DNA of 64,000 nucleotides from assembly GCF_022482905.1 (NCBI RefSeq), contig NZ_JAKVOI010000001.1:929958-993957 (forward strand), written 5' to 3'. Numbering within the stretch: position 1 is the first letter of the stretch; every line of letters begins with the position of its first letter. The stretch comes from Clostridium sp. (GTDB lineage Bacteria > Bacillota > Clostridia > Clostridiales > Clostridiaceae). The notes under the pieces are model-generated. The model was not told the origin of the DNA. It ran no database searches and was given only the letters and a program-made list of their open reading frames with translations. Both the position numbers and the translations under genes were made by a program. Shown piece by piece: positions 40,633 through 54,975 of the stretch.

Positions 40633-41991
40633 CTATATAGATATGGCATTAACTCTTTGATTGAAATCCTTATTACTTAAAATGGAAGAGTAAATTTCTT
40701 CAATAAGATTTAATCCTCCAGTATAACCAATATAAGTTCTATTTACAATTAGCTTATCTAAAATTGGATTACTTATATAAACTATTGGTGCATTTAAATC
40801 TTCGGATAACTTATCCTCCCAGGTGCTTCCTAAAATGAGAGTTTTTCTAGGAATATTTACATCATTTCTTATTGCTTTTTCTATAATTCCTCCATCATTT
40901 TCAAAAAATACCTTTTCTTTATATTCCTTATGAATATCTTCAAATATTTTATTAATGTTATTTTTATGTTTTTCCTGAATATTATCTATTAAAAAAGCAC
41001 CCTTGGGAACATACCCCAATTCATTGATCAGAAAGTTGCTGGTACCTATTGCATAAGCAGAATCAGCAATAGTATACAACTCAAATGGTAATCCGGCTCT
41101 TCCTTCAGCTATAAAATCACCAATATCTAAAAAATATTTATAAAATGAAAATTCCTCTTCCTTTATTACTTGTTCAACCCTATCTTTATCAAGGTTTGCA
41201 AACTCTCCCACAGTTCTTAAAAATTTGCTGGTTGCAGCCGCTCCAACAGGTAATTCTTGATAATGAAGAAATTTAGTTCCGAATTTTCTTTCAAGGAGTT
41301 CCGCAGCCTTTAATCCAACCCATGGGTTTAACACTAAATTAAATTCTGCATTGGGGATATCTTTCCATTCTTCAACACCTTTACTTTCATAACCAAAAAG
41401 TATATTTACTTCTAAGCCTATGGCAGTTAAAATTCTTTTTATTTCCTTTAAATCGCCTCTCCAGAATGGATTTTGATTTGGAACAACTGAAAATACATTT
41501 ACCAATCCCTTTCTAACGTTTGGCTCGGCATCACCTATATATTGTTCAATTATACTTTTTATAACAAGCTCATGACCTACGTAGTTACTTCCTTTAAAAC
41601 CCGCTGTTTCTGCATTAATGATCGGTTTGCCCTGCTTTTGGTATTTATTGACTATGGACGTAACATCATCTCCAACTATATCTGCAGTACATCCTGTCAG
41701 AACTACAAATAAATTACCCTTAAGTACCTTTAATGCACCATCAATTGTTTGATCAAGTTTCTTTTCTCCACCAAAAACTATATCCTTTTCCGATGAATTT
41801 GTACAAGGTATGTGGGTTCCTCCGACATCACTTTCCCCTTGATATCCTGCTGATGTTGTTAAAGCCAATGAAACCTTGTTGCTGCAGCCAGGTCCACAGT
41901 GTAGAACCGGTACAGCTCCTCTTATTGCCAGAACTGTATGCTGTGCTCCTATTGCACAAGTGTATCTTGGCTGTTCAATTACGTTACTCAA
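40633..41991 (-). CDS. nitrogenase component 1-type oxidoreductase, NifK/NifN-like beta subunit
   Basis: By-eye alignment to NifK. YTCAIGA, VLHCGPGC and VVLTGCTADIVGDD match the regions of the three P-cluster Cys ligands. EKDIVFGG and TAGFKGSNYVGH blocks are present. Confidence 0.75.
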   Translation of the reverse strand: MSNVIEQPRYTCAIGAQHTVLAIRGAVPVLHCGPGCSNKVSLALTTSAGYQGESDVGGTHIPCTNSSEKDIVFGGEKKLDQTIDGALKVLKGNLFVVLTGCTADIVGDDVTSIVNKYQKQGKPIINAETAGFKGSNYVGHELVIKSIIEQYIGDAEPNVRKGLVNVFSVVPNQNPFWRGDLKEIKRILTAIGLEVNILFGYESKGVEEWKDIPNAEFNLVLNPWVGLKAAELLERKFGTKFLHYQELPVGAAATSKFLRTVGEFANLDKDRVEQVIKEEEFSFYKYFLDIGDFIAEGRAGLPFELYTIADSAYAIGTSNFLINELGYVPKGAFLIDNIQEKHKNNINKIFEDIHKEYKEKVFFENDGGIIEKAIRNDVNIPRKTLILGSTWEDKLSEDLNAPIVYISNPILDKLIVNRTYIGYTGGLNLIEEIYSSILSNKDFNQRVNAISI

Positions 41992-43456
41992 GTCTTTTCC
42001 CTCCTTTTGTAAATATAAATGGGTTTTGATTTAACCACCAGTCCGTATATGGTGACTCAAAATGTTTAGCTAATGTTTCAACATATTTTCGTGTCCTTAT
42101 TGACTCATAAATTTTTTCGCCTAAGGCAATTACTCCATCATAACCTATTATCATGTTTGGATCAGCTAAATGAAAAGCTGGAATACCTAATTTATTGATT
42201 ACTACTGCAATACCTGGATGCCTTGCAAGTACAAAATCAGGTTTGAATTTCTTTAATATATTTGTAAATTGATAAGGCTGTTTATTAGTTACACAATAAT
42301 TTTGAATATTTCCAATATGCTTTAACATGTTTCCTACTGTATTAATTTCCTGATAATCATTATCATAAGCTTGATCATGATGGAAAGCTACCGTTCCTAT
42401 TACTTCAAGTCCTAAGGAATTAGCAACACTTACGTAGCTTTGAACAATGGCGTCCCCAGCCATAATATATATTTTTTTCCCTTTTAATTTTGATCTGAGA
42501 TTCTCCAATTTTGGCTTGATTTTAGCATGTTCTTCCTTTATTACTTCCTCAACTCTTTCAACTTTATTTGTCAATCTCCCTAGTTCTCTTAACCATTCAT
42601 CAGTCCATTTTATACCTGTTGGAGCTGGTGCTTTAATCTCAGGTACATCAAATTCACTTTCTAAAGCTGCTGCCACATATGAAGCAAGAGTTTCGCATAT
42701 GTTTGCCGTTGCCACTGCATCTGATATATTCTCAATTTCTTCAATGGTTGAAAATGGGAATATATATCTTGGTTTTAAATCAAGCTTTCTTAGTAAATCA
42801 TCAAATACATGAGCTCCCTGAAAATTAATGATATTTATATAATTGGTCTTCTTACTGGACTTCTTCACTATTTTTCTCAATATTGCATGCCCGGATGCAT
42901 CAAAACCAGTTGTCCAAACTTTAGATTTAAATCCTTCACAATAAACAGGTACAACATTAATACCCGTTTCTTTGCTTAAGGTATCTGTTAAACTTTCTAA
43001 ATCTTCTCCGATAATTCCTGAAGCACAGGAGGCAGTTATAAATACTACCTTCGGATTAAATCTTTCTTTTGCAAGCAGCACAGCTTCTTTTAATTTAGCT
43101 GCTCCACCATATATAGTGTCCTTTTCTTCAAGATTTGTACTTATAGCTTTAAAATTTCCAATATCTATTCCTCTCAAAGCGGCCCCTCTTCTAATATTAT
43201 TTTGTGCCGTAGCAAAATCTGATGCACAGCCGATTGGTGCATGATTTATAACTACAGAGCCAATAATATTTGATACAATTCCAAAAGCACAGGAGGATGA
43301 ACAAGCTCCACACTGGCTGAAGCTTCTTTCCTGCGGTTTTATACTACGATTTAAAGATTTTTCATAAATATCCTGTGCAGAGCCATTATAAGATATAATC
43401 GCCCCTAATCGCTTATCTCTTATTTTTAGTTCTGCTAATTTTAGGTTTATTGCCAT
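41984..43456 (-). CDS. nitrogenase component 1-type oxidoreductase, NifD/NifE-like alpha subunit
   Basis: By-eye alignment to NifD. QCGACSSSC...INHAPIGC, EKDTIYGG and FITASCASGIIGEDLES match the P-cluster ligand regions. VVPVYCEGF is present. ANICETLASY aligns with the Cys275 region and GIPAFHLADP with the His442 region. There is an 8-nt overlap with the downstream beta-like gene. Confidence 0.75.
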   Translation of the reverse strand: MAINLKLAELKIRDKRLGAIISYNGSAQDIYEKSLNRSIKPQERSFSQCGACSSSCAFGIVSNIIGSVVINHAPIGCASDFATAQNNIRRGAALRGIDIGNFKAISTNLEEKDTIYGGAAKLKEAVLLAKERFNPKVVFITASCASGIIGEDLESLTDTLSKETGINVVPVYCEGFKSKVWTTGFDASGHAILRKIVKKSSKKTNYINIINFQGAHVFDDLLRKLDLKPRYIFPFSTIEEIENISDAVATANICETLASYVAAALESEFDVPEIKAPAPTGIKWTDEWLRELGRLTNKVERVEEVIKEEHAKIKPKLENLRSKLKGKKIYIMAGDAIVQSYVSVANSLGLEVIGTVAFHHDQAYDNDYQEINTVGNMLKHIGNIQNYCVTNKQPYQFTNILKKFKPDFVLARHPGIAVVINKLGIPAFHLADPNMIIGYDGVIALGEKIYESIRTRKYVETLAKHFESPYTDWWLNQNPFIFTKGGKRLE

Positions 43457-43507
43457 TTAAATCACCTCTTTATTTTTTTGATTAAATATATTTAATCCTT
43501 TATATGC

Positions 43508-43548
43508 AAAAAAGGAGCACAAAATTCAATAAAGAATATTTGTCCTCC
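43508..43548 (-). terminator. intrinsic terminator inside the 5' leader of the nitrogenase-like operon (candidate attenuator)
   Basis: On the minus strand the sequence reads GGAGGACAAA - 15-nt loop - TTTGTGCTCC followed by TTTTTT. Nine of ten stem pairs form. It sits about 50 nt upstream of the start codon and about 100 nt downstream of the predicted promoter. Confidence 0.55.
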
Positions 43549-43654
43549 GGTTTTCCAGTTAGAAAATAGCTATTTTTATATTTTTAAGTGATATAACTAT
43601 GCAGTGAGCTGCTAATTTATATCCATATTTGCATATATAATTCATGTAATTTTA

Positions 43655-43683
43655 AGTATATAGAATTATTTATCTATTGTCAA
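43655..43683 (-). promoter_or_regulatory. sigma-A-type promoter TTGACA-17-TATACT for the nitrogenase-like operon
   Basis: On the minus strand, TTGACA is at 43683-43678 and TATACT at 43660-43655, with a 17-nt spacer. Confidence 0.4.
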
Positions 43684-54867: not shown

Positions 54868-54975
54868 AATCTTATCAAGAGTGGTGGAGGGACTGGCCCT
54901 TTGAAACCCGACAACCAACATTTGTACATGAATGTATGGTGTCAATTCCAGCAGAATATTCTGAGAGATAAGAAA
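54868..54975 (+). promoter_or_regulatory. SAM-I (S-box) riboswitch aptamer
   Basis: CTTATCAAGAGTGGTGGAGGGACTGGCCCTTTGAAACCCGACAACC...GGTGTCAATTCCAGCAGAATATTCTGAGAGATAAG matches the S-box consensus, including the P1 pairing CTTATC/GATAAG. Confidence 0.92.

Follow-up and report, generated by a model that had tools for sequence, protein, structure and literature searches.

The leader of a nitrogenase-like operon in a Clostridium sp. (minus strand, positions 43,683 to 43,457 of the 64,000-nt stretch analyzed here, hereafter the window) carries a short conserved hairpin that overlaps an intrinsic terminator. The hairpin is a copy of a covarying RNA motif that precedes the genes of a sulfur regulon and is linked to yezD, a gene of the DUF2292 family. 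The window leader is very probably a conditional terminator of this sulfur-regulon motif. We also propose, with about even confidence, that it is a transcription attenuator answering sulfur limitation and opened in trans by the candidate factor YezD; which way the switch works, that YezD binds RNA, and that there is a regulatory cascade are what we infer from the observations described below.

The operon and its leader

The operon consists of two minus-strand genes with Oxidored_nitro domains (PF00148). The first (41984 to 43456; E = 2.6e-75) encodes a nitrogenase-like D/E-type subunit of 490 aa that has 10 paralogues in this genome. The second (40633 to 41991; E = 1.3e-67), which overlaps the first by 8 nt, encodes a K/N-type subunit of 452 aa. 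There is no NifH gene next to this D/K pair, and a divergent CBS-domain gene lies upstream. Translation of the first, alpha-type gene is served by a Shine-Dalgarno sequence (AGAGGUG, 43469 to 43463) and an ATG start (43456 to 43454).

An earlier, sequence-only reading had described a sigma-A promoter followed by a leader with a canonical intrinsic terminator, and both features were found where it placed them. The promoter (43655 to 43683, minus strand) consists of TTGACA (43683 to 43678), a 17-nt spacer, and TATACT (43660 to 43655), with 11 of 12 positions matching. Promoter-like sites showed no excess across the region (5 found versus 5.1 expected from shuffles); the promoter element TTGACAATAGATA is kept in four orthologous leaders of another genus. 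The terminator (43508 to 43548, minus strand) has a stem at 43548 to 43514 with one G.G mismatch and a direct U6 tract (43513 to 43508) that ends 51 nt upstream of the ATG at 43456. Its G+C-containing fold is stable (-14.9 kcal/mol; z = -5.15), and none of 200 shuffles was equally stable. A simple terminator scan did not pick up this terminator, which we attribute to the interrupted stem. The same terminator was found 3' of the motif in the orthologues and in the majority of the inspected copies.

Just 3' of the -10 element is a conserved box, ATATATGCAAATATGG (43623 to 43638, minus strand), that is common to the orthologous leaders. Boxes of the ...ATATAGGAATACTTGG type open many other motif-bearing leaders, and the start of many of these leaders reads ...ACATATAGGAATACTTGG. 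Both the window box and the latter form have what we take to be a resemblance to the CymR (Rrf2) operator. The box at 43623 to 43638 may thus be a candidate operator of a CymR-like repressor, in which case the operons would be under dual control, at the DNA and RNA levels.

Two further elements of the earlier reading exist in the window but did not stand as conserved structures. The 14-nt palindrome AAAATAGCTATTTT (43576 to 43563, minus strand) is not kept as a palindrome in the orthologues, and only its 3' half matters, as one strand of the hairpin described below. The small GCAG-CUCA-CUGC hairpin (43612 to 43601, minus strand) loses its pairing in the orthologues. The outer helix of the minimum-energy fold (UAUAUGCAAA/UUUGCAUAUA) was also discarded; it is kept in only one of four orthologous leaders from the other genus.

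The predicted transcription start lies about 3 nt ahead of a 28-codon open reading frame (ORF; MNYICKYG..., 43645 to 43559, minus strand) that has two Cys codons and stops exactly at the UAA of the motif. This ORF is probably fortuitous because it is absent among the orthologous leaders. Elsewhere in the window, a canonical SAM-I riboswitch (54869 to 54974, plus strand; 89 bits) was the sole Rfam match.

A conserved hairpin shares a strand with the terminator

The earlier reading overlooked a hairpin that overlaps the base of the terminator. It matches a covariance model of the motif (R1) at 43536 to 43570 on the minus strand (39.0 bits; E = 1.7e-6). Its 5' side comprises the 5' strand of P1 (43566 to 43562), a UAA internal loop (43561 to 43559), and the 5' strand of P2 (CUGG, 43558 to 43555). 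After an AAAA loop (43554 to 43551), the 3' side comprises the 3' strand of P2 (CCGG, 43550 to 43547), an AG internal loop (43546 to 43545), and the 3' strand of P1 (43544 to 43540). The general plan of the motif is P1, 5' U-R-A, P2 (CURG), an A-rich loop, P2', 3' A-G, and P1'. The window copy fits the R1 definition (i.e., P1, U-R-A, C-N-R-G, loop, C-Y-N-G, A-G, and P1' running into the terminator), and its P1 is weak, with a U.C mismatch.

Nucleotides 43548 to 43540 are common to the 3' half of the hairpin and the 5' arm of the terminator. The two structures are therefore mutually exclusive. A comparison of alternative folds, which the sequence-only reading had recommended, gave only -4.5 kcal/mol for the hairpin on its own, versus -14.9 kcal/mol for the terminator with which it shares this strand.

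That reading had also suggested aligning the regions upstream of orthologues. Our leader alignment included orthologues of 91 to 93% protein identity from another genus and one 81% orthologue. The hairpin and the terminator are kept. An invariant block extends from UCUAACUGGAAAACC through the 5' arm and loop of the terminator, and six orthologous or paralogous leaders show no change in the hairpin segment. The upstream leader of the 81% orthologue is unrelated to that of the window; there, the motif comes after a G+C-rich segment (GGAUGAAAGUCCCUGCUGAGAAAGCCC...) that looks structured and has a terminator of its own (L002:3050-3249, minus strand, in G016), and this segment had no Rfam match.

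Comparison with known RNA families and antiterminators

The earlier failure to match the leader to known riboswitch consensus sequences agrees with our searches of Rfam 15, whose families include S-box, T-box, preQ1, ykkC, and Moco. The window leader had no match at the gathering score and only chance microRNA and lncRNA rows at E ≤ 10, and no family matched the motif in canonical copies from other loci. Conditional read-through, as proposed earlier, holds insofar as the leader contains a terminator that is part of a conserved switch, but not with regard to the palindrome, the GCAG hairpin, or a tRNA effector of the T-box kind. The last of these finds no support in the leader, which has neither a Stem I nor a T-box sequence.

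The motif has an asymmetric internal loop and overlaps the 5' arm of a terminator, as do the RAT targets of LicT, SacY, and GlcT in Bacillus, a resemblance of architecture only. Both are hairpins of about 30 nt with the asymmetric loop beside a 4-bp top stem, and both lend their 3' half to a stronger terminator as its 5' arm. Their sequences differ, given a RAT consensus that we take to be UUA-CUGC...GCAG-G, compared with URA-CURG...CYRG-AG for the motif. Unlike RAT systems, which serve sugar PTS regulons, the motif serves sulfur acquisition, and the genome has no CAT_RBD protein. A six-frame search of this 99.99%-complete genome for a CAT_RBD (PF03123) antiterminator gave 0 matches, while control genomes did match.

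ANTAR proteins (i.e., EutV, NasR, and AmiR) were likewise rejected. An ANTAR target consists of two tandem hairpins with hexaloops that have A at position 1 and G at position 4. The motif, in contrast, is a single hairpin with a loop of 4 to 5 nt. The only ANTAR protein of the genome is EutV, encoded beside EutW and EutA. These three genes (EutV, REC-ANTAR; EutW, a PdtaS-type kinase; EutA) open an ethanolamine cluster (G000 1,127,882 to 1,131,517; L034:9882-13517) that directly adjoins the last nitrogenase-like gene and could be mistaken for the regulator of that cluster. In the searchable literature, with subscription papers outside its scope, we found neither the motif nor relevant reports on YezD/DUF2292 or the regulation of clostridial nitrogenase-like genes.

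Recurrence, covariation, and spread of the motif

The element recurs elsewhere in this genome, each time with a terminator after it, and R1 had 21 matches in total. Variants in this genome have AAAAA, AAAGA, AAUU, CAAA, or AUAUA loops and a P2 of CCAG/CUGG or CCGG/CCGG. Among copies more generally, the apical loop varies (ACAA, AAUU, and AUAUA). A strict pattern gave 76 matches in 31 of 301 Clostridiaceae genomes, while its reversed control gave none.

A scan of species-representative genomes, in which many chance matches arose in G+C-rich genomes, extended the motif beyond Clostridiaceae. Among the matches listed, genuine copies (i.e., with P1 and a terminator) were present in Lachnospiraceae, Fictibacillus, Halalkalibacter, Sutcliffiella, Paenibacillus, Lysinibacillus, the Streptococcus mitis group, Enterococcus, Trichococcus, Sporomusaceae, Pelosinus, Treponema, and Desulfuromonadales. 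The motif is also present in other Clostridia, in Bacillaceae, and in Negativicutes. R1 was trained on A+T-rich seeds, and G+C-rich copies, with variants such as GCUGACCRGACAACYGGAGGCC, are under-detected.

Six loci assigned to the Streptococcus mitis group from records whose title was shown (L118, L147, L161, L165, L191, and L204) contain near-identical copies of the motif plus terminator. A conserved 17-codon ORF precedes the copies in five of them (L118, L147, L161, L165, and L204). In two loci of this group, the next gene encodes a phage minor capsid protein, so these copies may lie in a prophage.

Across 83 distinct aligned sequences, P2 was paired in 100%, and three of its pairs showed compensatory changes. 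In P1, the three inner pairs were formed in 100%, 96%, and 77% of the sequences, with up to six pair types, including G-U; those formed in 96 to 100% had 3 to 5 pair types. The observed covariation score was reached by 0 of 500 shuffles, and no slid register came near it. Since both helices covary and use G-U pairs, the motif is an RNA structure and not a DNA palindrome. The orientation of the motif always agrees with that of the downstream gene, and many copies lie in 5' leaders. K-mer enrichment upstream of the motif recovered only the promoter and no second RNA element.

These data bear on the explanation that there is no switch at all, with the motif being either a preferred upstream context of strong terminators, in which an A-tract pairs with the U-tract, or a DNA operator. 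In its favor, the terminator fold allows the AAAA loop to pair with the U-tract, and the CTAG-N4-CTAG core is palindromic as DNA. However, P1 covaries while pairing a nonterminator segment with the 5' arm of the terminator, and the frequent G-U pairs argue against a DNA site. The constant orientation, the location in 5' leaders, the loop variability, and the existence of terminator-less copies directly before cysK also count against this explanation, which we regard as highly improbable.

Genes downstream of the motif

The gene after 64 Clostridiaceae copies was an Oxidored_nitro gene in 25 cases and NifH in 6. Other Clostridiaceae targets include radical-SAM proteins, molybdopterin oxidoreductases, CWB2 wall proteins, ABC binding proteins, a PFL-like enzyme, and a Cys/Met PLP enzyme. 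Outside Clostridiaceae (74 copies), the next gene was most often cysH (PAPS reductase; 10 copies) or a radical-SAM gene (8 copies; several NifB-like, as judged from the N-terminal sequence), and an SsuD-type monooxygenase, CysK, and SsuA followed 4 copies each. Siroheme methylase, MetY, and MetQ were further targets there. This set of genes (nitrogenase-like D/K/H/B, cysH, cysK, ssuD/ssuA, metY, and siroheme) identifies the motif-bearing operons as a sulfur-acquisition regulon.

The sequence-only reading anticipated that the effector would hint at the substrate of the nitrogenase-like enzyme, and the genes associated with the motif do hint at sulfur acquisition. Group IV-C nitrogenase-like enzymes, including one from Clostridium, are methylthio-alkane reductases (PMC13753814). 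The sulfur-acquisition regulon fits that assignment. For these systems, that study and a 2026 review are both silent on riboswitches, attenuation, and antitermination.

Outside the window, a sulfur island of about 70 kb (L031 to L035; G000 1,058,001 to 1,132,000 and 833,001 to 845,000) contains nine further nitrogenase-like D-type paralogues along with NifH-, NifB-, and NifX-like genes. SsuA-type ABC systems, metK, and a Cys/Met PLP enzyme are also encoded there. Its RNA elements comprise eight S-boxes, seven of them directly in tandem with the motif, two T-boxes, and at least 12 motif copies. In the seven tandems of this genome, the motif follows the S-box aptamer in six and precedes it in one. 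Given this arrangement with S-boxes, the motif must report something other than SAM.

In Lachnoclostridium and in Clostridium metagenome-assembled genomes, a tRNA gene stands directly 3' of the motif and terminator, before a NifB-like gene (L106, L139, and L222). The tRNA is an Rfam call in L106, and a like sequence was recognized by eye in L139 and L222. The anticodon appears to be GCA, which would make it a tRNA-Cys. A tRNA behind a sulfur-regulon attenuator is an unusual placement.

Linkage of the motif to yezD

The genome encodes two DUF2292/YezD proteins, both outside the window (G000 1061141 to 1061386 and about 1063237 to 1063407); their genes were first noticed among the small ORFs heading the main sulfur cluster. 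DUF2292 is encoded in 28 of the 29 genuine motif-bearing Clostridiaceae genomes. R1 matches were present in 16 of 25 further DUF2292-positive genomes (9 had none), compared with 2 of 25 DUF2292-negative genomes (i.e., the exception G013 and one weak match). A phylum-wide sample gave matches in 10 of 40 yezD-positive and 1 of 40 yezD-negative genomes. In these co-occurrence counts, related genomes are non-independent samples, and the sampling was confined to DUF2292 proteins other than the proteobacterial OscA type. Membership in one sulfur regulon could also account for the co-occurrence.

The relative position of the two is more specific than their co-occurrence. A same-strand motif lies within 1.6 kb downstream of 19 of 43 Clostridiaceae yezD genes and upstream of about one. 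At 29 phylum-wide yezD loci, all 12 matches lay 3' of the gene in the same orientation, with no more than 25 nt between motif and stop codon in 8 cases. Inspection by eye, including a G+C-rich variant, found the motif at 13 to 14 of 26 yezD loci. Thus, about half of the yezD genes sampled have the motif downstream, and about half have no motif nearby. A tblastn search of all fetched loci placed the yezD stop codon -3 to +25 nt from the U-R-A of the motif at about 20 loci. Such contacts span Bacillaceae, Lachnospiraceae, Clostridiaceae, and Negativicutes, and in some Lachnospiraceae the UGA of the motif is itself the yezD stop codon.

This proximity could instead point to a TnaC-like attenuation in cis, in which a ribosome that terminates or stalls at the yezD stop codon would cover P1/P2 or the base of the terminator and thereby decide the outcome. 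The shared UGA and the location of the conserved part of YezD in its C-terminal ~30 residues speak for such coupling. Most copies, however, including that of the window, lack an upstream ORF that ends at the motif, and the three reading frames upstream of 166 copies are alike apart from yezD itself, on which basis leader-peptide attenuation was rejected. The 28-codon ORF of the window is missing from the orthologous leaders, structure prediction gives YezD a folded domain, and some yezD genes stand apart from any motif. Ribosome-coupled attenuation in cis, taken together with a different hairpin-binding protein, is in our judgment distinctly unlikely.

In this genome, a T-box followed by an S-box precedes the first yezD gene. 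When the T-box is aligned to the Rfam consensus, its specifier reads UGC, a Cys codon, suggesting that the T-box is Cys specific. If so, YezD would be made only when both cysteine and SAM are short. The second yezD gene is in an operon downstream of a motif copy, and gating by that copy would give positive feedback.

The YezD protein

YezD has about 50 residues and is predicted to form one helix and a beta-hairpin (pLDDT 74). The protein is basic (median pI, 9.1) and almost devoid of cysteine. Some PF10055 proteins of 110 to 117 aa, about twice the usual length (P0002 to P0009 and others), appear from their sequences to be tandem two-domain DUF2292 fusions. Such fusions suggest that YezD works as a dimer, and the protein is probably dimeric.

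Comparison of the predicted fold with structures (Foldseek and VIA-align) gave no informative match (best Z, 3.2), and sequence searches of solved structures and of a protein atlas gave nothing. The NCBIfam tie of YezD to Pseudomonas OscA is weak and below the cutoff; OscA, with its weak similarity to YezD, carries the name sulfur-starvation response protein. No mechanism for the DUF2292/YezD family was found in the searchable literature.

Proposed mechanism

In the attenuation that we propose, RNA polymerase would start at the sigma-A promoter and make about 80 nt before reaching the hairpin, which would emerge as P1, the U-R-A/A-G internal loop, the 4-bp P2, and the A-rich loop. Unaided, the more stable terminator would win, and the nitrogenase-like D/K genes would be off. 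A trans-acting factor that keeps the hairpin closed would block the base of the terminator and allow read-through. The likeliest such factor would be YezD, acting like the CAT domain of LicT on RAT or like HutP. Once made, YezD would open all motif-gated operons, including that of the window.

YezD-dependent antitermination is favored by the layout (i.e., regulator gene, hairpin and terminator, and then targets) together with the RAT-like hairpin. In RAT systems, the regulator gene is often directly upstream (glcT-RAT-ptsG), as yezD is with the motif. The CAT domain, like YezD, is small, a dimerizing binder of about 55 residues, whereas the candidate protein here belongs to DUF2292 and has a predicted helix plus beta-hairpin fold. 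A similar layout is found with HutP at the hut terminator and PyrR at the pyr attenuators, where the regulator is the first gene of the operon, the regulated terminator follows directly, and further sites exist. HutP recognizes UAG repeats, PyrR promotes termination, and neither is related to YezD or the motif by sequence or family.

Alternatively, the motif might be an ON-type small-molecule riboswitch, in which a metabolite binds the U-R-A/A-G loop and stabilizes the hairpin, with YezD merely the co-regulated first gene. The ligand would be one that accumulates under sulfur limitation, with O-acetylserine, N-acetylserine, and O-acetylhomoserine as candidates. Such a riboswitch would suit an element that is self-contained, occurs in distant phyla, and gathers its conserved nucleotides in one internal loop and the closing pair. 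The tandem S-boxes imply a second, non-SAM input, and the known RNA-binding antiterminator families do not fit. The geometry is also that of ON riboswitches; in the pbuE adenine (ON) and preQ1-I riboswitches, the terminator and the helix that the ligand stabilizes have a strand in common, and the elements are, like the motif, about 30 to 35 nt long. In contrast to these, the motif has no Rfam family, its conserved core is only a 3×2 loop, and its association with a protein gene is strong. A ligand would have a very small pocket, with R at one position of the internal loop and a variable apical loop. A metabolite also offers no reason for the placement of the motif right at the yezD stop codon in many lineages or for its near confinement to yezD-encoding genomes. 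Genomic linkage thus favors YezD/DUF2292 over a metabolite as the effector, and we consider a riboswitch, the main rival, rather unlikely.

Implications for sulfur regulation

Sulfur genes in Firmicutes are governed by S-box, T-box, and CymR control. The S-box (SAM-I) and Cys T-box share with the motif both the regulon and the output, an intrinsic terminator, and the S-box occurs with it in the tandems described above. They differ from it in being wholly different, much larger structures that sense SAM or tRNA. To this control, the motif adds a widespread RNA switch with a separate signal. In Bacillus subtilis, read-through of the ssu leader terminator reportedly depends on sulfur supply through a factor that was left unknown (van der Ploeg et al., 2001). 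This leader may contain the same element. The ssuD and ssuA genes follow the motif in other Firmicutes, and B. subtilis, a control genome here, encodes YezD.

We tentatively suggest, with slightly less than even confidence, that YezD/OscA (DUF2292) proteins form a new family of small antitermination proteins that bind RNA. They would clamp a hairpin of ~30 nt before terminators and be made only under shortage of cysteine and SAM, behind a Cys T-box and/or S-box. In doing so, they would switch on a dispersed sulfur-scavenging regulon, including nitrogenase-like (methylthio-alkane-reductase-type) enzymes, in Firmicutes and beyond. This proposal gives DUF2292/YezD its first testable molecular role, and the short modular element could serve as a sulfur-responsive expression part. 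The orphan nitrogenase-like D/K pairs of acetogenic and solventogenic clostridia are placed in a sulfur-limitation regulon, and the motif provides a regulatory marker for predicting which nitrogenase-like paralogues serve sulfur acquisition.
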